A DNA stretch of 64,000 bases from Macrostomum lignano. Lineage: Eukaryota. The stretch is taken from assembly GCA_002269645.1 (NCBI GenBank), contig NIVC01001945.1:62001-126000 (forward strand). The letters run 5' to 3'. Of the stretch, positions 38,201 through 64,000 are shown piece after piece. The stretch's first letter is position 1. Every line of letters starts with the position of its first letter. The notes beneath the pieces were generated by a model. It was not told the origin of the DNA. It did no database searches and saw only the letters and a program-made list of their open reading frames with translations. The position numbers were made by a program, and so were the translations under genes.

Positions 38201-41200
38201 ATACCTGTGATTACTCAGTAATGAATAGAAAGTTCGAATGGTGACCAATCAACTTTGCAGTACTGCAACAACACCTGCTGCAATCCGACCACTTGCAAAT
38301 TCAAACCGGGAGCCACCTGCGCCTCCGGCCAGTGCTGCAACATCAACACCTGCTCGGTGATGTCGAGAGGTTCAGTTTGCAGAGCATCCCGAGGTGTCTG
38401 CGACCTGCCTGAGTACTGCAACGGCACCAGCGAGTGGTGTCCCGAGACTGACGACTTCCTGCTTGATGGCACCGAGTGCGCCTTCAACCCGACCAATTCT
38501 TTGGTAACTGCGGAAGCTGGGCTGGATGGGTTGATGGGGAATACGGGACGCCGAGCAGGTTTATAAGGCAGGTGTTCTCTACAGATAGTGGATAGCAGGT
38601 AAATTTGCAGGCTGCATAGACACTGAGCAGGTAGATTTGCTGGTAAATTGGGTAAACACTGAGCAGGTAGGTTCGTAGGTAAATTGGGTAGACACTAGAC
38701 TGGTAGATTTTTTGGTAAATTGGGTAGACACTAGACTGGTAGATTTTTTGATAAATTGGATAGACACTAGCTGATAAATTGGGTAGACACTAGACTGGTA
38801 GATTTTTTGATAAATTGGGTAGACACTAGTTGATAAATTGGGTAGACACTAGACTGGTAGAAAGGATGGATACGAAGCAGATAGAATCTAATGCTCAGGT
38901 GCAGGTGAAGACCCTCCGTCCCTCTCCCTTGCCCGCCCTCGCCAGCAGGTGCAGGCCTACTGCTACAACGGCGAATGTGGCAGCCGGGATTCCAGATGCT
39001 CGCAGCTGTTCGTCAACGTCAACAGGAGCGCTACAACGGAAGCGGCGGAGGCTGCGTCGACCGCAGGCAACGAGACTGGCTATTGCGACTACCGCGCTGT
39101 GGATGCTTCTCCACTTATCTACCAGTACCTGGGCTGCGTTGGCGGGTGAGTTCCCGTGTGCGGAGTTCATCCCTGTGGCTACAGGTGCCTGGAGTAGACA
39201 GGTGTGCCTGGAGTAGACAGGTTTCTGGAGTAGACAGGTGTGCCTGGAGTAGACAGGTGTGCCTGGAGTAGACAGGTTGTGCCTGGAGTAGACAGGTTGT
39301 GCCTGGAGTAGACAGGTGTGCCTGGAGTAGACAGGTGTGCCTGGAGTAGACAGGTGTGCCTGGAGTAGACAGGTGTGCTTGGAGTAGACAGGTTTCTGAA
39401 GTAGACAGGTGTGCCTGGAGTAGACAGGTGTGCCTGGAGTAGACAGGTGTGCCTGGAGTAGACAGGTGTGCCTGGAGTAGACAGGTGTGCTTGGAGTCGA
39501 CAGGTTTCTGGAGTAGACAGGTGTGCCTGGAGTAGACAGGTGAGCCTGGAGTAGACAGGTTTCTGGAGTAGACAGGTGTGCCTGGAGTAGACTCGTGCCG
39601 GACGGGGCCGAGTGCGGAGCGAGCATGGTGAGGAGTTCGGTAGTTTCGGGAGTTGTGGGATATCTTCCCGACAAACTGACATGTGAGATAATGATTGTGG
39701 GAGATCTTCCCGACCAGCTGACAGGTGATATAATGATTGTGGGATATCTTCTCGATCAGCTGACAGGTGAGATAATGATTGTGGGAGATCTTCCCGGTCA
39801 GCTGACAGGTGAGATAATGATTGTGGGAGATCTTCCCGGTCAGCTGACAGGGGATAATGATTGTGGTAACCTTGTCAAGCAACAGTCAAAGGACACTAAT
39901 GGAAATTTCCATTCCAGATGTGCGTCAGCTAAGTCTGCCGTGCTGTGTCGAGCGTCGCAGCCGCCGCTAACCCGTCCGCCGGGTCGCTGCCGAAATGCAA
40001 CGGCCGCGGGCACTGGGCGCAGAGCCGGCAGTGCTTCTGCAACGCCGGCTTCGCTCCGCCAGACTGCCTGGCAGCTGGCAACGGCGGTTCGGCTTCCAAT
40101 CAGCCAGCCGCGTCTGCAGGTGAGTGGAGGCTACATGAGACATTTGCTGTGTTACTCGTAGATTGATCGAATACGGGGTCCTCAGCTTGTTTGTGCATCC
40201 GCCTGTCCACTCACTCAGTGCTTGAGAATCCGCCTGTCCACTCACTCAGTGCTTGAGAATCTGCCTGTCCACTCACTCAGTGCTTGAGAACCTGCCTCTC
40301 CACTCACTCAGTGCTTGAGAATCCGCCTCTCCACTCTCACAGTGCTTGAGAATCTGCCTCTCCGCTCACTCAGTGCTTGAGAATCTGCCTCTCCGCTCTC
40401 TCAGTTGCTTGAGAATCTGCCTCTCCGCTCACTCAGTGCTTGAGAATCTGCCTCTCCGCTCCCTCAGTGCTTGAGAATCTGCCTCTCCGCTCACTCAGTG
40501 CTTGAGAATCTGCCTCTCCGCTCACTCAGTGCTTGAGAATCTGCCTCTCCGCTCACTCAGTGCTCGAGAATCTGCCTCTCCGCTCTCACAGTCTTGAGAA
40601 TCTGCCTCTCCACTCTCACAGTGCTTGAGAATCTGCCTCTCCGCTCACTCAGTGCTTGAGAATCTGCCTCTCCGCTAACTCAGTGCTCGAGAATCTGCCT
40701 CTCCGCTCTCACAGTCTTGAGAATCTGCCTCTCCACTCACTCAGTGCTTGAGAATCTGCCTCTCCGCTCACTCAGTGCTTGAGAATCTGCCTCTCCGCTC
40801 ACTCAGTGCTTGAGAATCCGCCTCTCCACTCACTCAGTGCTTGAGAATCTGCCTCTCCGCTCACTCAGTGCTTGAGAATCTGCCTCTCCGCTCACTCAGT
40901 GCTTGAGAATCCGCCTCTCCACTCACTCAGTGCTTGAGAATCCACCTCTCCACTCATTCAGTGCTTGAGAATCTGCCTCTCCGCTCACTCAGTGCTTGAG
41001 AATCCGCCTCTCCGCTCACTCAGTGCTTGAGAATCTGCCTCTCCGCTCACTCAGTGCTCGAGAATCTGCCTCTCCGCTCTCACAGTCTTGAGAATCTGCC
41101 TCTCCACTCTCACAGTGCTTGAGAATCTGCCTCTCCGCTCACTCAGTGCTTGAGAATCTGCCTCTCCGCTAACTCAGTGCTCGAGAATCTGCCTCTCCGC

Positions 41201-45573: not shown

Positions 45574-48133
45574 ATGTTCCTGCTGTTGTTTAGCAAGACC
45601 AAGAGAAAGTCCTCGGACAGCAACTTGGTCGCCATGAACTCGCTATCGGACAATCCGGAGGACCTCCTGCAGGAGCGGCACCGCCTGTCCAAGCTGGAGA
45701 AGCGGCAGAGGGCCAGGGAGAAGAAGCGCCGTCGCGAGGCCAAGAAGCTGCGGCGGCTGCATCGATCCGGCAACGGAAGCGGCTGCCGTCACCTCTGCTG
45801 CTGCCTGGGCCGCTTCCCCTGCCTTCTGCTGCTTCTGGCAGGCCTGTCCGCCTTTCTCTACTTGTACTTTTATCGTGGACTCAGCATTCACTTGGCGCTG
45901 AGTGACCGGCTGCTCGATAGGCAGATGCTCCTGCGTAAGCAGCAACAGCAGCAACTGCCGCAGCAACAGTTGTTGCCCGCAAGGTTAGCTTATCAAAGAT
46001 CAATACGTTTTGGGGCTTTGTCGTGCGATTCACCCATGAGGACCAACCCTCCAAGGCAAGAGTGTACCATGCTTTATGATTAGACAATCAGAATTGCCTC
46101 AACGCTGGAGTAAGATTCAACCCCACAGATGCTGGAATAACTGGATGGGCCACTCAGGCATATATAACTTAAGTAAAACAGCTTTCTACTTTCAGTTCAG
46201 TAGCAAAGAAGAATACATAAGGTATTTTATATAAAAGGCAGTTGAAATGACTTTGATTTAGAAGCCAAGCTTGCAGGCGTAAAACAACTTGCGAATTGGT
46301 TCAGCAATAATGTACATTAGCCAGTCCATGAAATGCACATGGCAGCTTTAGGCTGGAATTCCGAGAAAGGCAATAAAAACTGGGGCGGGGCGTTGGGGCG
46401 TAGTGTGCAAAGGCGCGGTTGGAGGGTTTCAGCTGGGGGTAAGAGGCAATAAAGAGCCTTGGCTTTAAAAATACATTAAAATACTTCTGTTTAACTTGCT
46501 ACTGAACTGAAAGTAGCTTGCACGCAAATGCACTGAGTGACCCACCATCTAGTTATTCTGGCATTGAATGGCTAAATTTTTCCAGTGCTTAAGTTGACTC
46601 TAACCATAGCAAATCTACCCAACACACGATTTCCCCCATCTGCAGGCCACCTCCGGATTCTCATCTTCAAGCGGAGGCCTCGCCGCGTAGAAATTGGCGC
46701 CTTCGAAACGGTTCTTTAGTCTCCCAGAATCTGGTGCCGCATCAGTCGCCTACTCGGGCTTCGGCGAGACAGCCAAAAATCATTCAAATGCCAAACAGAT
46801 GCCCGAGTTCGTCTTTGTCCGCGCTGTTCCTGGCCACCCGTGATCAAACAATCCGTGACGCGGCACCGAATTTTGTCCGTCGGCAGCGGGAAGCTGTGCG
46901 ACGATCCTGGGGCGGCCCGGCCGGATTGAAGGCCGGAGGCTCCGTCGTCTTCTTGGTGACTGTGGAGACTGCGTACTACGCACTGAATCAGGTGCAAATT
47001 AGGGATGGGTTGCGTTGGCTCACTAGGAACCTGGGGGCTCAGTGGGGAATCTGAGGGTTCAGTCGGGAATCTGGGGGCTCTGTGGGGAATCTGAGGGTTC
47101 AGTCGGGAATCTGGGGGCTCTGTGGGGAATCTGAGGGTTCAGTGAGGAATCTGATGGCTCAGTGGTGAATCTGAAGGCTCAGTAGGGAATCTGATGGCTC
47201 AGTGGTGAATCTGAAGGCTCAGTAGGGAATCTGATGGCTCAGTGGTGAATCTGAAGGCTCAGTAGGGAATCTGATGACTCAGTGGAGAATCTGATGGCTC
47301 AGTGAGGAATTCGAGGGGGCTCAGTGGGGAATCTGATGGCTCAGTGGAGAATCTGGGGGCTCAGTGGGGAATCTGATGTCTCAGTGGGGAATCTGTGGGC
47401 TCAGTGGGGAATCTGTGGGCTCAGTGGGGAATTTGCACGCGGGATTGGGGCTCACTGAAGAGAATTAAATAACCAACTCCAACAACCAACTGCTCGCGTG
47501 TAGGAGGCGAAGAAGTACGGCGACTTGATGATCATACAGTCGGCAGTCAGCAGCAACCCGAAGCTGGCGGAGCAGCAACCACACCTGCTGTTTGCCCTGG
47601 CCAAGCTTCGGTCCCGCTGTCCTTTCGTCAGCCTCTACGGCAGGACAAACGCCGGGGTGCTGTGGAATCCGCGCCTGCTGAAGCAACTGCTACACCTGAT
47701 GCAGCAGCGCGGCCAGCTTCAAGAAAGCCTCATGCTTGGCCGAGCCGTCCGCGGTCTGTCCAAGGACTCCAGCACCGGTCTCAACGAGCGGCTGGCCGCC
47801 GACCCGGGCTACCTAATGACCGGCCGCGCGCTGGACGCCCTGTTGAAGTTGGCGAGAGGCAACCGCGACGAAGACGACGACCACCGGCTGGACGACGGTG
47901 TCACAGACAATCGCCTGACTGGCGACCTGAGGTTGAAGGCAGGAGTCCGTCTGGCAGACCTTGGCCGACAGCTGCGGGTGTCCCGCCGGCCACCGAGGTC
48001 GTTCTGCCTGGCCCGGGCAAGACTCGCCTGGCCGGGCCTGAGCGCAGACGACATGGAGCACCAGTGGGCGAAGGTTTCAAGCAGCAGTCTGGAGTGCACG
48101 CAGTCGGCTGCTGAGCAGCCAGACGAAGAGTAG
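45574..48133 (+). CDS. GT31 (beta-1,3-galactosyl/GlcNAc-transferase-like) type II membrane protein, 3 exons, catalytic motifs degenerate
   Basis: Exons 45574(or 45634)-45983, 46646-46991, 47504-48133 join in phase; N-terminal TM CLLLLLAGLSAFLYLYFY; GT31 hallmarks RQREAVRRSWG, VVFL, LNQEAKKYGDLMII, RCP, GYLMTG, C-terminal FC...W...C. Confidence 0.75.
46129..46564. mobile_element. Old MITE-like element with imperfect inverted repeats in GT31 intron 1
   Basis: atgctggaataact...ctactttcagttcagtagcaa is mirrored by ttgctactgaactgaaagtag...agttattctggcat. Confidence 0.5.
47030..47440. repeat. 20-bp minisatellite in GT31 intron 2
   Basis: Unit ggctcagtggggaatctgat and variants. Confidence 0.88.
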
Positions 48134-48214
48134 CCAAGGACCACTATAGTAAAACAGGACGGGAAATTCAAAGGAAATTCCAGGAAATTGGCCTACAAAA
48201 AATGCACTGCGGAG

Positions 48215-48955
48215 ACTACGTAATGCGCAGATAAGTGTTGATTTTTAGGCAGATTTGACGCAAAAAACGCAAATTATACTACTATCTGAAAATGAAGTAA
48301 GTAGTATACAAAAACGCTATCCTAAGCGTGATATGACAATATGTAGTCGTAATAATCCATGTGCTCATATATGTACATTAATTCCATGTACATTAATCCC
48401 TATCTATCTCAAATTGTACATTAATTCCATGTACATTAATCCATATCTCAAATGTCTATCCCCAATTCTATATGTACACTTACATTAATCTACAGTGTCA
48501 TCCCCAGCGCGCGCGCACCAACATTACATGTACAATACTACATGTACACAGAGGTGAGAATTACTAATCTCATCTACTACCAAATGAGTCAACTAACAGT
48601 GTAGCGCACATCATGTATAAGTATTTACAATGAAGATATATTTACATTTAATCAGTAGCATATTACAGGAATCGAGACATGTACACCATCACCAGCAAAT
48701 AGAATATACAGAAAATTTTACATTGTTTTTCAATATTTTTCTCTTCATAAATGATTTTAAACAGGTTTGACATGCAAAATATGTACAATAGATTTTTACA
48801 TTGGCAATTTCGCCACACGCAATGCAAAAATGTTTTATGTACATTGAATTATATACAGCAAATAGATTCTGATAAATACAGCAGTATTACAATGCAACTT
48901 ATGTACAATAAATAGATTTTACTAATTTAATATTGCAAAATGTACATTGAATTGT
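48215..48955 (+). repeat. Left terminal inverted repeat of the Polinton
   Basis: Reverse complement of 62603-63336 with a few substitutions and one 9-bp indel. Confidence 0.92.
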
Positions 48956-49939
48956 CAGACAGATTTGAATAATAGTGGTCGGAGTCTATATGTACATCGA
49001 TAGCCTCTATACTCATATCCGCTACATACCCAAAAAATTAGGTATGTACATTTTCACCCTCGGAGACCGTAAGTTGAATATGCTGATAACTTATACAAAG
49101 TCACTTATAAAATACACATACTTTCATATAGAGGCGGGCCTGTACAAACTCTCGCCAAGCGATGGGGTGGAGGTTGCGTCATCCAAGCCTCTCCCCAAGT
49201 CAGAACCCAAATGCAGGACTGCGTTGAAGCAGTGCTTTATATTTCTATATTGACAGTGTGGAGGATACAAGACCTTTAATTGGTAATTATCAACTGCTAC
49301 TGCTGTACGGTATATCCTCACCCCCCCTCGAAACTCCTATACTGAATGTTGAATCACCCTTTAACTCGGACCATAGTCAAATTCAACCCTGTTCGAAAAC
49401 AGCCACCCCTCCGATGTTTACCAGACACAGCGCAGACCCCATAGCAAATCGAGCTAAATTTTAACACTCACCCCTGTTCTCTCTGTCCCCCCTTCTAAAT
49501 GCCAAGGAATTTCGACCCTCTCTCCATTTTCAGTGTACAGACAGATCTTTCCACAGCACAGACCATATATTAAACTCAAAACCCCTCTCTTCTCCGATTA
49601 CGTCATCCATGCCGCCCCAGATAGCAAGAAACCAACTTTTAATGCACACATCAACCCCCGCGAGCAAATCCGAGTCCGCCAACCTCTACCTGCATTGACA
49701 AACCCCAGCTGCATTTTTAAATGTACACAGCCTATGAATCAGTGTCTCCACCGCATGCAATTCTGATTTACTTTGATTCTAAACTTTGTAAATTGTATAA
49801 GTCACCCTTGCGTTATACTAGAAGTAGTGAAGTCCACATATTTAAATACGTGAGGCTATTCAATTCTGCCTCTCCGCCTCCCCTGCCTTCTCACTTCAAG
49901 CTTTCAGAATTGGTCTTTGAGACGGTCGGTTTAATCTGT

Positions 49940-51190
49940 TAGAAGCAGGAATGAATCATGCACTGACCTCTCCATACAAAGTAAAGTTGGAATTTCAGAC
50001 AAGAAATTTGGTTATTTTGAAAGCTAAATGACTAGAAATGCACATTTTTCATTAAAATGCAGCTTTTTACAGTTTTTTACGATTTTAACCTTAAAATGCA
50101 GACTTTGTTGATCAAAATCAGTGGTTTCATCACTAGAAACTATACATTCAACAGCTAATTTGTCCAAATGGCGCTTTCAACTTGACTTTAGACAGCTTTT
50201 AAGCAGGAATGAACCCCACACAAACATCCACAAGCCAGCCTAAAATCATCCAAAGACATGGCTATTGAAGCCTAATTGCTAGAAATGCGCATTTTTCATA
50301 AGAAAATACAAATTTTCACAGTTTTTATGCATTTTTAGGTTCAAATGCAGACTTTATTGATCAAAATCAGTAGTTTCATCACTGAAAACCATAATTTCAA
50401 CAGCTAATGTGTCCAAATGTCGTTTTTAACTTGACCTTAGACGGCTTCAAAGCAGGAATGAATCGCACACGAACATACACAAGCTAGCCCAAAATCATCC
50501 AAAGACGGCTGTTGAAGACTAAATTGCTAGAAATGAGCATTTTTTCATAAGAAAATACAAATTTTCACAGTTTTTACGCATTTTTACGTTAAAACGCAGA
50601 CTTTATTGATCAAAATCAGTAATTCATCACTAAAAACCACAATTTTAACACAAAATTATTACAAATGCTATAACTTCTGGCCACTCTGAGACAGCTTCGA
50701 AGCAGGAATTAATCACACATGGATTACACCAGCCAGTCCAATATCCACTGAAGCCAGGGTTTTTTAAAGCTGAATTGTTAGAATTGCTCATTCTTTCGTT
50801 TAATAAATGGCAATTTTCACAGTTTTATTATTTTCTAACGTTTAAATGCGAAATGTATTGGTCAAACTTAGTTGTTTAATCCCAAAAACCATAATTTCAA
50901 CAGCTAATTTGTCCAAATGCTGATTTCAAAGTTGGCAAGAAACAGCTTTCGAGCAGGAATGAGTCACACACTGATCTCTATATGCACACCCCGGCCCAAG
51001 TTGGAATTCCACCCAAGACATTTTAATGAAAGCTAAATTACTAGAAATTGCACATTTTCGTTTAAAAAAAGGTCAATTTTTCACAGTTTTACTCTTTTTA
51101 ACGTTCAAATGCAGACTTTATGGATCGAAATCTGCTATTTTATCAGCAGAAACCATAATTTTTACAACTTAATCGTCAAAAATGCTGTTT
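49940..51190. repeat. Five diverged ~250-bp tandem repeats inside the Polinton
   Basis: gcaggaat anchor at 49945, 50203, 50452, 50702, 50953. Confidence 0.85.
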
Positions 51191-52227
51191 CATCATTCAA
51201 ATAGGCATGTATATTGCCCAAGAAGCTGGGGAATATTCTATAGACACAGTAAAAATTGGGGCTAAAAACACAGTCTGCTATTAAACTTAGTTTTCAGCAT
51301 TCAATTACTAAATCATGCCATTGATGCTATTTTAAACGTTATTCTCAGTTCTGAAGCTCCCAACAGCCTCTTTTAGATGCATTGAATCGGTTTTGTTGCA
51401 TACTTTGCATGTTGAATCACCCTTCAATTCAACGATTCTCCGCTATACATTCTAGCCATATTCAAAATTCAACCCAGGACTATTAATGTTCGCCAATATG
51501 GAGAGAACAACACCTACCCCAGCCTCACCAAGGCAATTCTTTACTACCGCGTAAATGCCATAACTGACTCTCTGTCCCTATAACCCCAGGTCCATCCCTA
51601 AACATTACGTAAACAGAAGTAGAAAACTCTGTCTCTGATTTGGCTTGCGACAGGGGCTGTCACCTTTATTACTCTTTGATGGATATTTTGGATGATGGCA
51701 AGAGCTTTTCATCGACTATTACTCTTCCCCGAGCCTCTGTCAATCGGATGCTTTGCACACAAGCCCCATTTCACCCAGGTTATTAAATTGATACAGCGAT
51801 TTTTAACAACCATTTTCTCGCAGAGACCGGCGGGCCTTAAAAACCACAGAAGTTATCTTTCATATTTTTCATCTGTATTTAGCTATTATTGGTCCGCCAA
51901 GGTATTGTCTTTTGAATAAACACCGTTTTCTATCCAATTCAAGTCGAAAAGACATGCTGCAAGAGGAAGCTGTCATCTTCTTTGAGAGACTGTACTCTGG
52001 CGGAGCAGCAGTTTTCACTCCTGCGAGAATGCTGGTTGGGTGGCTCCGCTCAGATCCAATAAAATACAGCATGAGAAAAGAATTGGTGGGGTATTTTCGA
52101 CCCCCAACTTTTCTATACCAAATGTGGAACCGAGTGTACAATCGTACACTAATCTAGAAAATATAGACCCGGGAAAGAAAATCACGCACACCTCTCGTGC
52201 CCCTACCCCATCCTCCCTCTTGCGGGG

Positions 52228-52235
52228 TATATAAA
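52228..52235 (+). promoter_or_regulatory. Candidate TATA box of the polB gene
   Basis: TATATAAA about 165 bp upstream of ATG 52397 (acaATGg context), followed by a CAG/CAT-repeat leader. Confidence 0.5.
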
Positions 52236-52396
52236 GCGGGTGAGAGCTGCTGCAGCAGCATCAGCAAAAGCAGCAGCACAGCTAGCAGCAGAAGTCACAA
52301 CATCAGCAAACGGCAGCAGCATCAGAAACCGCAAGCATCAGCAGTCACAGTCGCAATCACAGCAGCCACAATCACACCAGCATCAGCAGCATCACA

Positions 52397-55024
52397 ATGG
52401 CATCGAAGCGTTCAGCCGCTGAAGCCGCCATTTCAACCTTGTGGGGACGAGCAGGCCCCTCACAACAGCAGCAGCACAAGGGCCGCAGGTACATCACGCC
52501 CAGAGAGAAGGCCACAGCATTCGCCAAGGAGTATGCGGCGGTAAGCAGCTACCAGATCAAGAAAAAGGACAGAGCGCTCAGAAGAAAGGTCGATCGGACG
52601 CTCAAGAGAACGCAGTCGGGTCGGAACGAGGGAGACGACATCACCTTGGAGGAGGTGCAGCATGCGCTGGACGAGTTGGACGGCGGAAAGGCGCCGGGAC
52701 CAGACAAAATCCACCCGAGGCTACTCAAGGAGCTGCCCACCGAGATGATCAAAGCGGTAGCCCAGCTGTTCCAACGCTCATGGGCGCACGCCGAAGTCCC
52801 ACAGAACTGGAGAACCGGCGAGATTGTGCCCCTGTTGAAGGAGAATCAGGTACCAGAGGCCATTGTGTCATACCGCCCGATATGTCTCACTGCGACGATT
52901 GGAAAGTGGCTGGAAAGAGTCCTGGCGAACCGTCTGAAGCACACGCTGGAAAACCAGAAACTGCTGACGGAGGCCCAAGCCGGATTTAGACAGGGCAGAA
53001 CAACCACGGACCAGGTGCTGAGCTTATGCCAGGAAATCAGCGACGGGTTTAACGATCGGAAACGGACCGTTCTGACCACCCTAGATTTCACCAAGGCGTA
53101 CGACAAGGTGTGGCGAACAGGGTTGCTCTGGAAGCTGCTGAAGAAAGGGATTGACGGCCGGATGATCAGATGGATACAAGCCTGGTTAGTCAATCGCACC
53201 AACTGGGTGCGGCTAGGCGAGGAGAAAGGCGCAGTGGTGTGTATGAAGCAGGGGCTTCCACAGGGGGCGGTACTGTCCCCCCTGCTGTTCCTGGTATTCA
53301 TCGACGACCTGCCCTCGGAATGCGGGACTACCGGCGTTCAATTCCGCATGTTCGCTGACGATGTAGCCCTATGGAGCACCGAAGAACGAGTAGGCAGAGC
53401 ATGTGCTAGAGTCCAGGAGGCACTACGGAAGGTGCACGAGTGGACCAGGGCCTGGTACCTCCCCTTGAACACTAAGAAGTGCGAGTCATGCGTCTATAGC
53501 AACAACCAAGCGGAGCGAGGAATGCGACTCGACTTGAGAATTGGAGATGACATCATCAGAACGACCTCGGCCCCCCGATACCTCGGGGTCACGGTGGACC
53601 AAAAGCTCACGTTCGCTGAACACGTGAGGATGCTATCGACGAAGGCCAGGGCGAGGACGCACCTGCTGAAGAAGCTGTGTTGCTTGGAGGGAGGTCTAAA
53701 CTTGGAGATTGCGAGGATGGCCTACCTGGCGCTAGTGAGACCGATTCTGGAGTACGCGGCCCCGGCATGGTACCCATGGCTGGCCAAGGTACACCTGGAG
53801 AAGCTGGAGAGGTGCCAGCGGGCAGCCGCCAGAGCCATTGCCGGAGTACTGGCCAGCACGCCGGTGGAAATGGTGCTGCAAGAAGCCGGGCTACCATCGC
53901 TGGAAAGCAGGCTGCAGTTCCAGACGCTGAAGACCTATGATAGCTACCGACGGCTACCAGCGGACTCGCCTAGGAATGAGATGGCCAATAGGCGCATGAA
54001 GAAGAGGCTGAAGAAGCCCAACTGGAGGCAGAAGTGTCGCGAGGACTGGACCAGACTGGCGTTACCGGAGCCGGAGCCGGAAGAGCGGAGCAGGCCAATC
54101 CCACCGTGGGTTCAAATCAGAACTAAGGTTGCCTTGGAGGAGCTCACGAACCGGCAGGCAACCGAGAAAGAGAACAAGGAAACCGCAGAGAGCTGGATCG
54201 CGAACAGAGACACCGACTACATCCTGTACACAGATGGGTCGGTGGGCAAGGACGGTAAAGGTGGAGCTGGTCTCATCATCTACCGGGGCAGCACGAAGCA
54301 GGGCGAAGCTCGAGGATCAGCGGGACAGGGATGCTCGTCCACGCAAGCCGAGATCAGGGCACTCCGTATGGCAATCGATTGGTTGGACGCGGCAGACTGG
54401 AAAACGGCCACCATCGTGAGTGACAGTCAAGCAGCGCTCCGGGCTTTCCAGGACAGATGGAAGGGTGAATGGCAGGACGTGAGGCATTGCTGGCTAAAGA
54501 TCGCGAAGTGGCCTGAAAGAACCCTGACGATGAAGTGGGTGGCAGGACATGTCGGAGTGGAAGGAAATGAGCTGGCGGACAGGCTGGCGGCAGAGGGACG
54601 AGGCGAGGAAGGTGACGTCTGGACAAGGAAAGCGGCCACTAACCACATTCGTAGAGCCCTGGAAGGCAGGATGGAGTGGAAGCACGAGAGGGCGAAGGAA
54701 ATCTACGCGAAGAAGCAGCCGGACTGGCGGAAGGAAGGAAAGTGGTGCAGAGCGGCCAGGCGCGATTTTGCCAGGTTCAGGACCGGACACCACACGGAGC
54801 TGGCGGAGTATGGTGCTCGGATTGGAGCCAGGGAGAGTGGAACGTGCCGGCTGTGCAATCTCGAGGAGGAAGGCACGGAACACGTACTGTTGAAGTGCCC
54901 AGTGATGGACAACATCAGGAGGAAGACCGGCATCACGGAGATGGGTGACTTATGCGCCATGCCCGAAGAATGCCGGGCCCTTTGGAACGAGTTCCGAGAA
55001 CGGGTTAGACTGAAGAGAGAGTAG
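52397..55024 (+). CDS. 875-aa chimeric ORF: ~27 aa of polB exon 1 fused to LINE reverse transcriptase-RNase H
   Basis: KAPGPD, YRPICL, QAGFR, LDFTKAYD, QGAVLSP, FADD; RNase H YTDGS, AEIRAL, SDSQAAL, WVAGHVG, NELADR; CRLC-x8-H-x4-C; no stops. Confidence 0.92.
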   Translation: MASKRSAAEAAISTLWGRAGPSQQQQHKGRRYITPREKATAFAKEYAAVSSYQIKKKDRALRRKVDRTLKRTQSGRNEGDDITLEEVQHALDELDGGKAPGPDKIHPRLLKELPTEMIKAVAQLFQRSWAHAEVPQNWRTGEIVPLLKENQVPEAIVSYRPICLTATIGKWLERVLANRLKHTLENQKLLTEAQAGFRQGRTTTDQVLSLCQEISDGFNDRKRTVLTTLDFTKAYDKVWRTGLLWKLLKKGIDGRMIRWIQAWLVNRTNWVRLGEEKGAVVCMKQGLPQGAVLSPLLFLVFIDDLPSECGTTGVQFRMFADDVALWSTEERVGRACARVQEALRKVHEWTRAWYLPLNTKKCESCVYSNNQAERGMRLDLRIGDDIIRTTSAPRYLGVTVDQKLTFAEHVRMLSTKARARTHLLKKLCCLEGGLNLEIARMAYLALVRPILEYAAPAWYPWLAKVHLEKLERCQRAAARAIAGVLASTPVEMVLQEAGLPSLESRLQFQTLKTYDSYRRLPADSPRNEMANRRMKKRLKKPNWRQKCREDWTRLALPEPEPEERSRPIPPWVQIRTKVALEELTNRQATEKENKETAESWIANRDTDYILYTDGSVGKDGKGGAGLIIYRGSTKQGEARGSAGQGCSSTQAEIRALRMAIDWLDAADWKTATIVSDSQAALRAFQDRWKGEWQDVRHCWLKIAKWPERTLTMKWVAGHVGVEGNELADRLAAEGRGEEGDVWTRKAATNHIRRALEGRMEWKHERAKEIYAKKQPDWRKEGKWCRAARRDFARFRTGHHTELAEYGARIGARESGTCRLCNLEEEGTEHVLLKCPVMDNIRRKTGITEMGDLCAMPEECRALWNEFRERVRLKRE

Positions 55025-58000
55025 GACCGTGGTACGGCAACGCCAACAACAACAACAACAACAGCAGCAGCAGCAACAACAGCCTCCGGCCGCAAAGAGA
55101 GGACGCCCACTAGGTGAGTCTCTGCGTGCGTAAAACTATGCTTTTAGCATTTGTAAAATCTGAATTCAGAAAAATAGGGCTGTATAATTGCTTTAGCATT
55201 TGTGTGATTAGCAAATTTTTTCGCTAGTTGAAATATGGGTTTTCTTTGAAAGCACAGCTTTTCATCTTTAGCATTCATTTTGGGTTAAAATTTCTGTAAT
55301 TGCTTTTCAGCTTTAGCATTTGTGTGATTTGCAAACTTTTCGCTTGTTGAAATATGGGCTTTCTTTGAAACCACAGCTGCTTTTCATCTTTAGCATTCAT
55401 TTTGGCTTAAAATTTCTGAATTTCCTCTTGACATAGATGTTGAAGTTGGATTTCTCAAATTCAGACCTGTTGAAATAACAGAGTTTTTGAGAATATCAGC
55501 AGCAGCAGCAGTATAGCCAGATAATACCTGTAGAGGATAGTCATAAAATTTCTGGGGTTATGTGACTAGAGAAGTAAAAACAGCAATCCTGCAGCGCGCG
55601 CGTGACTCAGCGGGGGGCGGGCAGGCGGCAGTGATAAAAATCAACCCCCGATTTTTGGGCTCAGCATGATGATGTAATCACCACAGCGGCAGGTATTCTA
55701 GCGGCGCAGTGATAAAATCACCCCCGATTTTTGGGCATGATGATGTAATCACCGCTGCAATTGTATGGGGTTTTGGCAGCAATAGCTGCTGCAGTGAGGG
55801 TTATTAATCAGACAGCTTTAAAAATCCAAAAGCGGCCGCGCGGTATTGTTGCTAGGTGTCAAGGAGGCACAATGGAGGCACGTGCTGATAGGGGGTTTTC
55901 TTAAATTTTACAATGGCTGCTGCGGCAGGATCTGTGTTATCAGGGGTCATCAATCAAACATTTTTGACAGCCTAAAGTTCGAAACGGGGGTCAATCAACC
56001 CCACATTTCTTTTGTTGCTACGTGTCGGAACGTGCCGAGTTGTGGTTTTTACAACTCACCGATTTTGTTGCTTGGGGTGGGGCGATAAAATTGCTGCTGC
56101 TGCAGGCAATCAATCAAAAAATTTTGACAGTTGTAAAATTCCAAGCGGTCAGAATTTTAGTCACCATGCGCATTTTATTGCAGATTTGGCTCAATTTCAA
56201 CCCCCGCCCCAGCCCGACACTGTCGAAGGCGATGGTAAGGAGTTGATTTTATTTCATGAGTCATACACCCACAATTCTAATTTCAAACCCTCAAATTTTT
56301 TCAGGCTTCATTGCGCGTCTTGGCGGGGCGAAAGCCCTGCCTAAATTTAGAGCTGCAGGACACGAATATGTGGTATCGTTCACAGCGGATATTGTCGATG
56401 TTCGAGACACATTCGCTAGGGTGATAACAGCTCTTTGTGTGGACCTTCAAGCAGATGATTTCGTCGCATCTAAGCTGACGGCGGACAACATGATGCTAGC
56501 CATCAACGTCCCGCCCGTCCGCCGCAGCCGCTTCACTGCAGAGCTTGTTTTCAAGCATATCAACAAGGTGCTGCAGTCGGACTCCAGCGTCTTGGGCAAC
56601 AACTTTAAATTGTTTTTGCTCAAGGCCTGGGTCCCGCGGGGCGGCTGCGGCAGCTTAGATGCGGCGGAGCGTCACATCCAGGCCAGGCATTCGACAGGCC
56701 GCAACTATATCGTCATTGCCAACCGCGATAAGCGGTGCCTCATTCGGGCGCTAGTGGTGGCCAAGGCCTTTGCCGACCTGGAGGCCAAGGCCATCACTAA
56801 GCAAACTTGGCGGACCATCAAGGCCGACTCCCCAATGCAGACGAAGCTGACTGGGGAGCTTCAGATTGCCGCCAATCCGTATTCGGTGAGTAAAAATGTT
56901 CTTGCGCATTTTAATTTGCATTTTTATTAATATACAAATGTTTTAGTCTTTATCAACCATTGCACAGGACGGGCCTTTCGGGGTTGATGTGCTCCCCCAA
57001 CTGCTGGCAGTTCTGAACGCCCAGTCGCCGGGCAGGGATTTCGGCGCCCGCGTGTACAGTGCTGAGGAGGGCAATACATGTGTGTACGCCCTGCCCGGCC
57101 GCGAAGTGCTGAATCTGCACCTAATTGGCGAACACTTTAACGCTGTTTGCAAAGTGCCGCCATTTTTCGGAGCTCGCCGCTATTGCGACCGCTGCCAGCA
57201 GCCGTATGATTGCAACTCTGCAGGGCACAAGTGCACCAACACCTGCCCTCAATGCAAAGTGCCCGGCACCGACTGCAAGAGCCTGCAGCGTGACTACAAG
57301 CGCTGCGCTGATTGTGGCCTCAAGTGCTACAATCAGCAGTGCTTCGAAAATCACCGCCGGAAAAACCGAGCCGGCAGGTCACGCTGCAGCTCAACCCGCG
57401 TCTGCCCCAAATGTGGATATGTAGAAGAGTTAAGAGTCGACCAAAAGGAGCCGGAGCACAAGTGCGGCCATGTCAAGTGCCCACTGTGTAAACAGTACGA
57501 CGAGGCCGGCTCGCATTTGTGCTTCGTCAAGGCTCCCAAAGTGAAAGCATCGACTATGCCGTACGTGTTCTACGATACGGAAACATACACGGACGAGGAG
57601 AAGCAGCATCACGTGCACCTGGTGACTGCCGTCACGTGCTGCGAGACCTGCTCCGGCCGGGCGTTTCCGCGCGAGACTTGCCGCCTCTGCAATGGCCTGC
57701 ATAGCGCCGCCAACTGTCTGACTGGCCGCGATCTGGGGGAGGAATTCTCCAATTGCGTCAGCCACTCAGACTGCGCCTGCCAAATGGCCGATTTTGTGGC
57801 TGTGGGCCCGGCCTCGCTGAATGCGTTTTTCGCCTGGCTGAGCACCACATTCCGAGGCGGCGCCATTGTTGTCGCGCACAATGCATCAGGCTACGATTCG
57901 TTTCTACTGCTTGGCGCTCTACTCAACGGCCTGGCCAAGAAGCGGCCACAAGTACTGTTCCAGGGCAGCCGGTTAATGAGCATGACGGTGGATAAATTGG

Positions 58001-61000
58001 TATTCAAAGATTCGTTAAATTTTATACCAATCCCGCTTGCGCAATTCCCAAAAGCGCTGGGGCTCGCTGACACAAAGCTGGCCAAGGGGACGTTTCCCCA
58101 CGAGTTCAACAAGCCGGCTAATTGGAACTACGTGGGCCCCTACCCGGCTATTGAATATTATGGCGGCAAAGCAAACAAGGACTATGACTCAATCTGTGCT
58201 TGGCTAGCCTCGCGACAGGGCGAGTTGTTCAACTTTAATCGGGAATATCTCGATTATTGTTTGAGCGACACAGTCCTGCTTCGCGAGGGCTGTATCAAGT
58301 ACAGGGCAATAATTGGTGAAATTTGCGACGGCCTGGAACCATTTGTACAGGCCAACACGATTGCCAGTTTGGCAATGGCCGTTTTCACCACCCGATTTAT
58401 GGAGCCCAACTCGGTCGGCGTGATTGCCCGGCAGGCCGACCAGCAATCGTTCAAGGCGCGCAAGTGGCTGACTTATTTGAATGCCACCGAATTTGGCGGG
58501 CGGCTGCGCACCTGCGACTCGACTGACGGCGAGGCTGTCATTCTTGGCCGCAAGGTGGATGGTTTTGATGAGGCGAGCAACACTGTCTTGCAGTTTCATG
58601 GCTGTTTCTACCATGGCTGCGAGCAGTGTATGCCTGATCAGGATGCTGTCCACCCACTCAAACGGCAGCCTCTGAGCCACATTCGCCACGAGACTGAGTG
58701 GTTTACTCGCGAGTTGGAGCGGCACAATTACAGTGTTCGTGTCATTTGGGAGCACGAATACGACACTGTATTGGCATCGCAGGCCGACTTTATCGCCGCA
58801 ACTGCACATCTGCGCGCTCCACTCAAGATGGAAGATGCTCTCTATGGCGGCCGCGTAGAGTGTTTTATCCCGCATGCTGTGGCCAGCGAGACTGAGACTC
58901 TCAAATATCGGGATGTGGTGAGTAGTGATACTACTGATATAGTAGAATATTTTGCAAAAATACAGTTTATGAAAATAATGTTTTATTTCAACTGGCAGGT
59001 CTCTCTGTACCCGACGGTGCAGTCAAAGGACCCGTACCCGATTGGCCACCCGGTGCAACATCCGACGCCGCAAGTGCTAGATTCTGACGCGCTGGCTAGT
59101 TACTTTGGTATTGCCAAAGTGACTGTATTGCCGCCGTCAGATTTACATATTCCGCTGCTGCCGTACAGAGTTCAAAAGAGTTCAAAAGTGCAAAAGAAGC
59201 TCTTTTTTGGGCTTTGCCGCACCTGTATGGAGCAGCAGTGTGGCGACGATTGTGACCACTCAGATGAGGAGCGGGCGCTGACTGGCACCTGGGCAACGCC
59301 GGAGCTGCGGAAGGCCTTCCAGTTGGGCTACCGACTGCAGGTGGTGCACGCGCTGGCCTACTGGACAGAGAAGCGGACCGGCCTGTTCAGTGACTATGTT
59401 AGCACCTTCCTCAAGCTGAAGGCTGAGTCGAGCGGCTCCCCCGGCATGTCGGATGAAGACAAGGCCGCCTACATTGCCGATTTCTTTGCAAAGGAGGGCG
59501 TCACGCTGGACAAGGTCGAGCCCAACCCAGGACTTCGCTTTGTAGCGAAAATCTTTTTGAATTCGTAAGTAATTATAAATTCTGTTTTTAAACGATTTCT
59601 TCTACTAACAGTAGCACTTCTTTTCACAACACACAGGCTCTGGGGCAAATTTTGTCAGCGTGACGACCTGACATCGACAGAAATAGTATCCAGCTACGAG
59701 GACTGGCTCGCCCGGCTGACCGACCCCAACCTCAAAGTCAAGGCCTGCGAACCGATTGGCAGCGAGTTTATGCTGCTAGAGTACCGGCACCGCTACTTTA
59801 ATCAGCGGCCCTTCCGGTACTCTAATGTGCCAATCGGGGTTTTTACAACCACGCAGGCCCGGCTGCGCCTGTACGAGGCCTTGGAGGGGCTCGGCGAACG
59901 GGCCATTTACTGCGACACTGACTCGTAAGTAATGCATTTGATGTAACCGCCCTTGTCGCCTGTCCGCTCCGTAGAGAGACGAACGCATGGCTAGAGGGGG
60001 CAATGACCGTAGGCTGCCTATGACCGGGCAATGACCTGACGGACCTCCAGCACCAGACTGTCCCGCCCACATGATTAGTAGCTTTGGTAGCGCTTCGTGA
60101 CCAGAGGGCCAAGGACCCACATGGACCCCACCTGTAGCCAAGGTGCAATAGTTGGTCACTCGGTCATGGTATGACCGAGTGGCTGCCACCACTCTATGTG
60201 ACCTGGCGCACCTGGATCTTTCTACCAGACCTCTCGAGGCTAGAGCCCCGCCTGGATTGGTTACCAGGGGATTTAGGCTAACAGGGGAGACGCATGCAGC
60301 CGAGTACAGGGACTCTGCTTGGGGCATGATCGGGAACTCTGGGCTCAATCCTGGAGGATTTCTCAGCAGGGGATCCTTTGTGGCTGTGAGCGAGGCTGAC
60401 TTGCGACTTTGATTACTAAGAGTAGTATGAGGCGAACATGTACTGTCTACAGTTTAGATTGCTCAGGGCGAAGGGACGCGTTAGCATGGGGTTGCAACCT
60501 TCCTACTGCCATTCTGTGCCAAGACTCGCTAATCCCTCTACTGCACGCACACGCGGCCCCGCAGCACGCACTCACAGGCGGGCTTTGCACGGGGAGAGGC
60601 CATTAGCTTACCCAAACTTCCTTATGCTTTGCCACCCCGGGAGAAAGGCTTAGCAAGCCATGAGTGAAATGATGGTGAAAGATTGAATAATGATGAAGTT
60701 AGTTAATAGTTAATAATTAGGCCCTTAGGCAAATAAGCAGGCAATTAGGCGGCTTCACTATTGAGTAAAATACAGCAAAAGATACGGTATCACAATTGGC
60801 TCAGCTCTCTAATCAGACAATGGAAAATAGGCAAACCCCGGATAAGCAAAGGCAATTAGAGCACAAATTAGTAGCAGGAACTTACCGGCAGCTGCACAGA
60901 GAGTGAGAGAGACGGAGTGACCGAGGGCGGCTGTAGGCTGCAGTCAGGCAGACGGTGAAGCGGCGATGCGCTGGAGCGACGAGGCGCTGATGTAGATCAG

Positions 61001-62583
61001 GCGATGCTGATGATGCTGGGCGGTATCAGACCGCTGGCCGATAGGCGAGCTCACTTGGGGAGCTAAGGATAACTTGGCGGTAACAGACCGCGGACCGGCA
61101 GGGATTCGTCTTATAGACGAATGGGTCAGAACTCAATCTGACAGCAAGTCCAAAGAAGGACGAGGAGAGGAACAGAGATAAACCCAGTTGAGTATTCTCA
61201 TGCCGAAATCGCTTCCTTTTATAGACCTCACAGCCGCCTCCTCAAGGTCGTTACCATGGCTCCCTCTCTCTGATTGGCTGCCGGCAGAATGACGTCAGAA
61301 TGAGTCATGATGAGAAGCATGAGACCGGCATAGCAACATGAGAAATCGGGAAATTGCGCAATCCGGAGGTGGGGTGGGGGGATAATTGGCGCAGCGGGTG
61401 GTCGCGAAAGTGTTGCGCAAGCAAACATTGAGAACAATAGGGCTGGGGTCGAGAACAAAGGAATTGGAAATCGGGGATAATTGGGGAAAACTGAGAACAA
61501 TGGAAAAGTAAACATTGGAGAAAAGGTGATAATTAGGTGCGAAAACGAGAACAAAAGAAAGAGAAAATCGGAGAAAATGTGATAATTGGTGGGGGTCGAG
61601 AGAACAAAAGAAGCAAAAACGAGAACAATAGAAGCGGAGGTGGGGTGGGTGTCACATGAGAAATTTGGGAAGGAGAACAATAGCGTGAGAAAAGGTTGCG
61701 CAAGAGAGGGGGATGAGTCATCGATGAGTCACCGAGGGGGAGAAGGGGTCACACGACTTGCGTCACCGTTTGGGAGTTTGAGAGGGGATGGGGAGACGGT
61801 GAGCACACAAAGTACTGTAAGTAGACACAGGGAAAGAGGGGACAGCGCAGGAAAAGAGTGCAGAGGGAGACAAAAAAAGAGAGGAGATAGAGAAAGTACA
61901 GGAAGAATAGGGCGGAAACAGAAGAGATAGGGTAGAGGGGGAGGTACAAAAAGGGGTAGGGGCTCCGGAAAGGCAGGTGTGGCGGCAGGAGAGACGGGAC
62001 CAAGGCAGTAGGAGGGGGGGCAGCAGAGCGGGAGTCTCCAGGCCCGGTCGGAGACCTGGCCGAGTCTCGACAGCTCTGTGCAGAGGGTGCACGGGATAGG
62101 AGGCACTTTCGAAAAAGTTCCCATGCCCTATCCCGCGACCAGAGCGTGGTTACATCACATTGATAAATTCTTTTAGAATTGAATAGTTGGCATGTGGAAC
62201 TAATTCCACAAGAGGGCCAATGGGAGCCGCCCCATGGCACGAGCCTCGGAATGTGGACCGACGAGGTACCCGCAGGCAGCCGGATGACCGACTTTGTAAG
62301 TGGAGGGCCCAAGCTCTACACTTACATTGTCGAGGATGCTGCTGGTGTCCGGAGTCAGGTCCTGAAATGCAAGGGCATCCGCCTGACTCCGGAGATTCGG
62401 GAACGCAGCGACGAATTGCGCAGTGCCCTACTACACGGCGGCTCCCTGAAACTGCCGCAGTTTCAGTTCAGGCGCGACAAGGCGTCTTGCACCATACACA
62501 CTGTTAGTATGGACAAGACGTTTCAGCGCGTCCTGACGAAACGCGTGTACGGGACCTTCAGCAGGCCTTATGGCTATAAATAA
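52397..62583 (+). CDS. polB: Protein-primed family B DNA polymerase (pPolB), 6 exons, about 1300 aa when reconstructed; exon 1 disrupted by a LINE
   Basis: Exons 52397-52476+55073-55113, 56305-56885, 56968-58917, 58999-59564, 59637-59924, ~62187-62583. ExoI FYDTET, ExoII AHNASGYD, ExoIII YCLSDT, motif A DV|VSLYP, motif B KIFLNS|LWGKF, motif C YCDTDS, C-terminal GPKLY and KCKG. Exon 1 assignment and the last acceptor are less certain. Confidence 0.88.
52477..55058 (+). mobile_element. 5'-truncated non-LTR retrotransposon (I-group-like: RT + RNase H + CCHC), (CAA)n tail
   Basis: 14-bp TSD caacagcagcagca at 52463-52476 and 55059-55072; (CAA)5 tail at 55044-55058; no endonuclease domain. Confidence 0.88.
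56305..56885 (+). CDS. polB: pPolB exon 2, N-terminal region with NRDKRCLIRAL (vOTU-like Cys motif)
   Basis: ttttcag acceptor, gtgagt donor, phase 0 into exon 3. Confidence 0.75.
56968..59924 (+). CDS. polB: pPolB exons 3-5: Zn-finger cluster, exonuclease, VSR-like nuclease insert, polymerase motifs A-C
   Basis: 859-aa ORF 56989-59568 plus exon 59637-59924; VDGFDEASNTVLQFHGCFYHGC insert. Confidence 0.93.
59939..62157 (-). mobile_element. Probable solo LTR (2219 bp) in the last polB intron
   Basis: TG...CA ends with 10-bp inverted repeat TGATGTAACC/GGTTACATCA; 4-bp TSD CATT at 59935-59938 and 62158-62161; minus-strand TATAAAA at ~61217-61223 with nearby CCAAT, TGACGTCA and TGAGTCA; no convincing ORF. 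Confidence 0.7.
62187..62583 (+). CDS. polB: pPolB last exon (C-terminal palm/thumb region)
   Basis: WEPPHGTSLGMWTDE...FVSGGPKLYTY...KCKGI...KRV...SRPYGY typical of pPolB C-termini; exact acceptor unresolved. Confidence 0.85.
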
Positions 62584-62602
62584 TGTAATCCAATTATAAC
62601 TA

Positions 62603-63336
62603 ACAATTCAATGTACATTTTGCAATATTAAAATCTATTTATTGTACATAATTTGCATTGTAATACTGCTGTATTTATCAGAATCTATTTGCTGTATATA
62701 ATTCAATGTACATAAAACATTTTTGCATTGCGTGTGGCGAAATTGCCAATGTAAAAATCTATTGTACATATTTTGCATGTCAAACCTGTTTAAAATCATT
62801 TATGAAGAGAAAAATATTGAAAAACAATGTAAAATTTTCTGTATATTCTATTTGCTGGTGATGCTGTACATGTCTCGATTCCTGTAATATGCTACTGATT
62901 AAATGTAAATATATCTTCATTGTAAATACTTATACATGATGTGCGCTACACTGTTAGTTGACTCATTTGGTAGTAGATGAGATTAGTAATTCTCACCTCT
63001 GTGTACATGTAGTATTGTACATGTAATGTTGGTGCGCGCGCGCTGGGGATGACACTGTAGATTAATGTAAGTGTACATATAGAATTGGGGATAGACAATT
63101 TGAGATAGGGATTAATGTACATGGAATTAATGTACAATTTGAGATATATAGGGATTAATGTACATGGAATTAATGTACATATATGAGCACATGGATTATT
63201 ACGACTACATATTGCCATATCACGCTTAGGATAGCGTTTTTGTATACTACTTACTTCATTTTCAGATAGTAGTATAATTTGCGTTTTTTGCGTCAAATCT
63301 GCCTAAAAATCAACACTTATCTGCGCATTACGTAGT
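62603..63336 (-). repeat. Right terminal inverted repeat of the Polinton
   Basis: Mirror of 48215-48955. Confidence 0.92.
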
Positions 63337-64000
63337 GCGGAGATATGAAGATATCTTTTTTTAATCACATAATCAAATGATTGCATTTGATCTGGGCAGT
63401 GTTATATTTTATATAGATGTGTAGTGAAAAGTTCATATTCATATTCATTGATATTTCATAACATGCTGTGCATGCCAAATTTAAAGATGGTTAATCATCA
63501 CTGCCCCAGATCAAGTGCGATCATTGATTTTTTTCCTATCTCAGCAGTGTATTTTTTCAGGAAATTTGCCTCCAAATAATACGATTTTTAAGTTTTACCT
63601 TTTGTTATACCATAGTGATGTCTGAGAGTAGTGTATGTAGCTCGCATTACAATTGAAAATTTTTCCTAGGCTTCCTTAGTTTCTGTGTTCCGCACCAACT
63701 AGTAGTCAGTAAGGGATCTGAGTACATGGCCCACGAGGGGCGAACTCACATTAGGTAAATGTGCCACCAGCCTTTTTACTACAGACAGAGAGGCTGTGTG
63801 CACCCTGGCGCACTTAAATCGACCTTGTGACACAACCGGCGAGAGGCATTACTGCATGCCCATTTTGGCAAACGGCAACTTAAACCGAGGGACTCTGTGA
63901 CATCCGCCAGCTTTTCGTTTTTCGAGGAGGCTCTTCCCCCTCCTTTTCGTTCTGGCCTGGCGTGGAAGCGGCTAGCTTCCTCGTCTTGGTCTGCTGGTGG

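Follow-up and report, generated by a model that had tools for sequence, protein, structure and literature searches.

The window analysed here, 64,000 nucleotides of a Macrostomum lignano contig (NIVC01001945.1, positions 62,001 to 126,000), holds an element with long terminal inverted repeats (TIRs), a target site duplication and a Polinton-type DNA polymerase gene (pPolB, polB) as its sole recognised gene. We asked whether such an element represents a class of satellites that borrow an integrase, as the first-pass annotation had proposed, or a decayed copy of something larger. Our analysis indicates that it is probably a young, non-autonomous derivative, dead by now, that arose by internal deletion from a fuller Polinton of M. 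lignano. Its ends, target duplication and gene content, together with four lesions in polB, are read directly from the window and are the starting points of this explanation.

The element spans 48215-63336, and its two arms align over approximately 740 bp, where 730 positions are identical, 6 are mismatched and 2 gaps occur. The TIRs, 744 bp on the left and 737 bp on the right, are 98% identical, and their lengths fall within the range of 100-1500 bp given for Polintons (10.1101/2023.08.22.554363). Since the divergence between the two TIRs is 0.8%, the insertion is young. Both the long near-identical TIRs and the size of approximately 10.3 kb reported at first pass were recovered, the element minus its two nested insertions amounting to 10,303 bp. 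It is laid out as follows.

48209-48214: left target site duplication GCGGAG (an alternative 8-bp version is 48208-48215)
48215-48958, plus strand: left TIR, starting ACTAC and carrying an internal 43-bp duplication
48959-49943: unique non-coding interior of 985 bp, with no family match and no coding bias
49944-51192: diverged 249-bp tandem repeat, approximately 5 units
51193-52396, plus strand: unique non-coding interior; the probable polB promoter follows, with a TATA-like box at 52228 and then a CAG-rich leader
52397-52476, plus strand: probable polB exon 1, 5' part, with the ATG at 52397
52477-55072, plus strand: 5'-truncated LINE (RT, RNase H, zf-RVT) with a CAA tail and a 15-bp duplication, in frame in exon 1
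55073-55113, plus strand: probable polB exon 1, 3' part, with a phase-1 donor at 55114
55114-56183, plus strand: probable intron 1, GT-AG, 1070 bp, holding 122-bp repeats
56184-56234, plus strand: polB exon 2
56305-56885, plus strand: polB exon 3, N-terminal region with a candidate vOTU Cys motif
56968-58917, plus strand: polB exon 4, with a candidate vOTU His, a Cys-rich region, the exonuclease, a VSR-like insert and the start of motif A
58999-59564, plus strand: polB exon 5, holding an in-frame duplication of 6 residues private to this copy
59637-59924, plus strand: polB exon 6, ending at motif C
59939-62157: solo-LTR-like insertion inside intron 6, with TG..CA ends, a 10-bp terminal inverted repeat and a 4-bp duplication CATT
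62162-62211, plus strand: remainder of intron 6; the acceptor and the first codons of the last exon are absent
62212-62583, plus strand: remainder of the last polB exon, its stop 17 bp from the right TIR
62600-63336, minus strand: right TIR
63337-63342: right target site duplication GCGGAG

The polymerase is matched by PF03175 (E 8.6e-27) and is of the Polinton type, though the gene is broken in this copy. Stop-free exon frames contain all 13 pPolB motifs sought. The labels used here for motifs (vOTU, exonuclease, VSR, polymerase A-C) follow our own reading, guided by PMC11161782 and 10.1101/2023.08.22.554363. Six GT introns are predicted in the gene. Five are GT-AG introns of 1070, 70, 82, 81 and 72 bp, and the sixth starts at 59925 and has a damaged acceptor. 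The phase of exon 1 fits exon 2, and in a sister protein model (P0010) the same Q-rich stretch runs on into polB.

We found three breaks in polB and one further alteration. The 15-bp target duplication of the LINE (52462-52476 and 55058-55072) places it within the short ATG exon behind the TATA-like box. The LINE therefore starts at 52477 and not at 52397, where it had been placed before; the ATG exon is the element's own, split by the LINE. Four sister models (P0001, P0003, P0006 and P0010) have approximately six residues after motif C for which no frame of this copy offers a counterpart, the best match being 3 of 6; a last-exon splice acceptor matching those of the relatives is missing as well. 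Exon 5 carries a six-residue in-frame duplication that is absent from the five closest models covering the site. As judged from its sequence, polB of this copy is not self-replicating now because of these breaks, and neither the complete pPolB nor the self-replicating element of the first-pass annotation can be maintained. The main argument of that annotation was that a polB open apart from the nested insertions marks a satellite class and not a randomly decayed copy. At the divergence of the TIRs, 0.6 stops are expected and the probability of finding none is 0.55, so that at this age a stop-free frame says nothing on selection; that argument falls because youth explains the open frame. The lesions are those of a neutral copy, a pattern that supports the decayed-derivative reading.

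The two nested insertions have features of their own. The LINE landed in frame in a CAG/CAA-rich exon behind the element's probable promoter, and an 875-aa stop-free chimeric ORF (52397-55024, plus strand) now fuses the first 26 codons of the element to the LINE RT and RNase H. The solo-LTR-like sequence of 2.2 kb (59939-62157) gave no Pfam or Rfam match.

The interior left of the promoter consists of two unique stretches of approximately 1 kb (985 and 1035 bp) flanking the 249-bp tandem repeat. No integrase was detected by Pfam or by a 6-sequence profile in the six frames of the element, and the searches likewise returned no capsid, packaging ATPase or protease, genes that are usual but not universal in Polintons. 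Pfam searches of 24 frames with stops read as X (TIR, interiors and LTR) gave a single match at chance level (E 0.079) and no core gene. Custom profiles likewise found no match in the element; they covered integrase, ATPase, protease, putative major and minor capsid, PC4 and two unknown families, and the pPolB control profile run with them detected even the short polB exons. These profiles were built from fetched Polinton-like loci, with capsid labels given by gene position and size and without a Pfam match; their sensitivity is limited, since the PC4 profile missed a PC4-like stretch in one sister model (P0007). A codon-bias scan of the interior showed no coding bias, its best scores being 16.6 (in the CAG-rich leader) and 15.2, against 55 and 35 for two polB exons and shuffle maxima of at most 20. 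Nothing usable came from PHROGs (10 short ORFs), Atlas (the 94-aa ORF at 48969) or Rfam. When 269 ORFs of Polinton-like loci were compared with the interiors, six matches with E values of 0.02-0.04 were obtained, including a 31-aa ATPase-like match inside the 122-bp repeat, and all were treated as chance. The earlier statement that no gene besides polB is recognisable thus stands, and the check for hidden integrase or capsid exons that accompanied it uncovered none by Pfam, custom profiles or coding bias. The element behaves as the remnant of a Polinton, but because no integrase was found we file it as a non-autonomous derivative and not as a complete Polinton. Neither the profiles nor the ORF comparison found a core-gene remnant in the interior, which counts against internal deletion.

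Precise ends without an integrase gene imply dependence on the integrase of another element, unless the gene was lost after insertion. With that proviso, the integration dependence of the proposed satellite is retained; the argument for a selected class is not. We propose that the element kept both ends and the intron-containing pPolB and that the rest would have been lost by internal deletion. Insertion would have been carried out by a retroviral-type integrase from a fuller family member sharing these ends, acting in cis if insertion preceded the deletion and in trans if it followed. The LINE, the solo LTR and two small changes would then have killed the polymerase. The family itself would replicate in the nucleus by way of a spliced pPolB transcript, which would run from the TATA box near 52228 into the inner right TIR.

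Loss from a fuller Polinton is supported by colinearity with a gene-rich relative, by PC4-like ORFs beside polB in other loci and by extra sequence in sister models. The polB protein is colinear with that of a Polinton (L001), at 30% identity; L001 has an intronless polB as well as integrase, ATPase and protease. This locus is one of 21 (L001-L021) recovered from public bacterial MAG records and taken to be host contamination. In 11 of these 21 fetched Polinton-like loci, polB has PC4-like ORFs next to it. One sister model, P0007, contains a PC4-like stretch, to which Pfam gives E 2e-4, short of the curated cut-off, and Atlas 0.87, no more than a lead. It also contains a segment common to the polB-upstream part of P0013, and neither of the two matches the window. 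The extra sequence in these models suggests that genes were lost in this copy. The PC4-like stretch may not belong to the element, because the P0007 locus appears rearranged: its residues 485-774 hold polB pieces in both orientations, implying an inversion there. No more copies of the P0007 accessory region were found among 8000 candidates, a result made uninformative by low-complexity stretches in the query. As a separate observation, a single Rubritalea MAG holds 11 near-complete animal-type Polinton loci, which are probably host contamination.

We next consider the family, whose sister copies are known from automatic protein models alone. Among 43 protein matches, 35 are M. lignano pPolB models with 46-94% identity. 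In a FastTree tree of 32 rows, the M. lignano-type rows, eight in number, form two supported groups, the first of which includes this copy; the tree does not resolve the deep position of the M. lignano clade. The two subfamilies are approximately 0.6 changes per site apart (approximately 60% identity), and both keep the motifs. Given so many diverged copies and the intact mobile ends, we rejected a domesticated host polymerase gene. The many M. lignano models in two subfamilies also favor a different reading, possible but in our judgment unlikely, in which the whole family is minimal, carrying a spliced pPolB and small accessory genes, replicating its own DNA and taking its integrase from a rare helper, with this copy a dead member. 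Consistent with that reading, the polB stop adjoins the TIR, two models (P0020 and P0029) run from a host exon straight into polB and straight on into host sequence again, itself a weak negative, and integrase, ATPase, capsid and protease are found in none of 41 related models (36 named M. lignano, 5 assigned by identity). The last count also speaks against a fuller parent, and it is weak because automatic gene models seldom fuse opposite-strand or distant genes; the small profiles, moreover, missed P0007's own PC4-like stretch. A family-wide minimal layout is further opposed by the extra sequence that sister models carry and this copy lacks, and it gains nothing from the open frame, which youth explains without the need for selection that keeps a trans-acting polymerase while the integrase is lost.

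A search for longer fused models gave 11 matches, 2 of them M. lignano-type, with no core gene; nine Heterodera and Pinctada models contain none either. Eight second-subfamily models (P0012, P0014, P0016, P0033-P0035, P0186 and P0187) share a stretch upstream of polB, approximately 280 residues in the longest model, with the look of an unknown gene read on its opposite strand. Read on that strand, it gave no integrase, ATPase, capsid or protease (best score 11.7; 7 of 9 controls scored 26-87 and 2 were weak, with just 6 shuffles run alongside), and the absence of a core gene there counts weakly against a fuller parent. Separately, P0189-P0196, from the cyst nematode Heterodera, are pPolB models of 1,800-2,700 aa whose long N-terminal parts have no core-gene match.

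The introns bear on the same question, since introns shared between subfamilies imply a long nuclear residence, which favors a family-wide minimal element. The 30 second-subfamily models show breaks exactly at the junctions of this copy: for intron 4 in 16 of 30, for intron 6 in 3 of 18, for intron 2 in 3 of 13 and for intron 5 in 1 of 25. Mid-exon controls in that subfamily gave 0/26, 0/27, 0/23 and 0/29, and one control was unclean in the first subfamily (4/9); the intron-3 junction was left out as ill-defined. These traces of four introns at approximately 60% identity indicate that the polB introns are old.

The derivation from a Polinton itself has to be weighed against the ends. A direct repeat GCGGAG at both flanks has a chance probability of approximately 2.5e-4, and its length of 6 bp is as expected of a Polinton. 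The bases just beyond it match too, and an 8-bp duplication TGCGGAGA with CTAC..GTAG ends, one base shorter, also fits. The perfect 6-bp duplication of the first-pass annotation is therefore present at 48209-48214 and 63337-63342, yet an 8-bp version accounts for the flanks equally well. The termini are ACTAC..GTAGT and not the AG..CT of vertebrate Mavericks (PMC8097293). The atypical termini and the possible 8-bp duplication count against a Polinton derivative and, along with the missing integrase, would suit a cut-and-paste transposon other than a Polinton, one that duplicates 8 bp of target and has the spliced pPolB as its cargo. We regard this as very unlikely. A 6-bp duplication looks like an 8-bp one by chance in approximately 6% of cases, and the odds are the same in reverse, so that the prior decides between them; Polintons are on record with TIRs of 100-1500 bp and duplications of 5-8 bp (10.1101/2023.08.22.554363), and the sole gene is a Polinton-type pPolB. 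It is hardly credible that the interior conceals a highly divergent integrase gene in many exons, so that the element was autonomous, for although a spliced polB means that other genes could be spliced too, the 985 and 1035 bp of unique sequence left of the promoter show neither coding bias nor a profile match.

Returning to the favored reading, a derivative reduced by internal deletion, we asked how it compares with known elements. Capsid-less Polintons and integrase-less loci with pPolB and TIR are already published. The 'N' in Repbase names such as Polinton-1N1_DR denotes non-autonomous. In Table S1 of PMC4028283, 9 of 72 Polintons are without capsid, ATPase and protease; Polinton-1N1_DR, Polinton-2N1_DR, Polinton-1_GI and Polinton-1_TV, among others, are, like the element here, 10-16 kb long and without these genes, although the table gives no integrase or polB status and the main text makes no mention of introns. 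In C. elegans, 10 loci across 18 strains have pPolB1 and a TIR with no nearby integrase (10.1101/2024.01.15.575659), the same combination as here; that study treats them as remnants, and its available text does not state paired TIRs or a duplication. Both sets support the non-autonomous-derivative reading (PMC4028283; 10.1101/2024.01.15.575659). Polintons with LINE or LTR cargo, some of them without polB, appear to be still mobile, which is consistent with mobilization in trans (10.1101/2025.02.07.637071).

Also close in architecture are Polintons/Mavericks (Polintoviricetes) with a VSR-containing pPolB, as found in marine molluscs and marine nematodes (10.1101/2023.08.22.554363). These share the long TIRs, the 6-bp duplication and the pPolB architecture including the VSR-like insert, whereas the element here is without integrase, ATPase, capsid and protease and ends in ACTAC..GTAGT. 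The polB genes of L001 and L003 are single ORFs, in contrast to the six GT introns here, and intact vertebrate Mavericks are reported to be intronless (PMC8097293). Dinoflagellate eupolintoviruses likewise have Polinton-like genes with spliceosomal introns, derived from introners (PMC12166617), but those are recent introner insertions in full-length elements, while the element here has introns of 70-82 bp that are common to two subfamilies approximately 60% identical. The six-intron pPolB is a more unusual feature than the gene-poor layout. In the literature searched, which excludes most subscription papers and Repbase, we found no account of integrase-less or intron-bearing Polintons as a class and, with preprint supplements also excluded, no related account of a Macrostomum Polinton/Maverick; the word 'Maverick' is absent from the text of an M. 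lignano transposon paper (PMC12801592).

Elsewhere in the window, 4489-34015 holds arrays of a 23-bp satellite, each with up to 403 copies, in alternation with arrays of a 17-18-bp repeat. The pattern recurs several times and may reflect a higher-order unit or a transposon that carries the repeats. At 36309-40106 (plus strand) lie exons of an ADAM-type metalloprotease gene, with introns filled by tandem repeats; the second-subfamily elements of P0012 and P0020 sit inside a paralogous ADAM gene. A 209-aa GC-rich ORF (47504-48133, plus strand) without a Pfam match, probably a host exon, ends 82 bp before the element.

As one deleted copy, the element is ordinary. The intron-rich pPolB common to two old subfamilies matters more than this single copy, and, because intact vertebrate Mavericks are reported to be intronless, such a lineage may record how a virus became a transposon confined to the nucleus. 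Speculatively, and we rate this as rather unlikely, an old M. lignano Polinton lineage with an intron-rich pPolB may have given up the virion and spread mainly as polymerase plus small accessory genes, with integrase supplied in trans. If true, this virion-less lineage would be a nuclear counterpart of linear plasmids. Genome assemblies and RNA-seq exist for M. lignano, and if polymerase-only copies are the rule, a division of labor among Polintons, in which the polymerase is kept and the integrase borrowed, would become directly testable.
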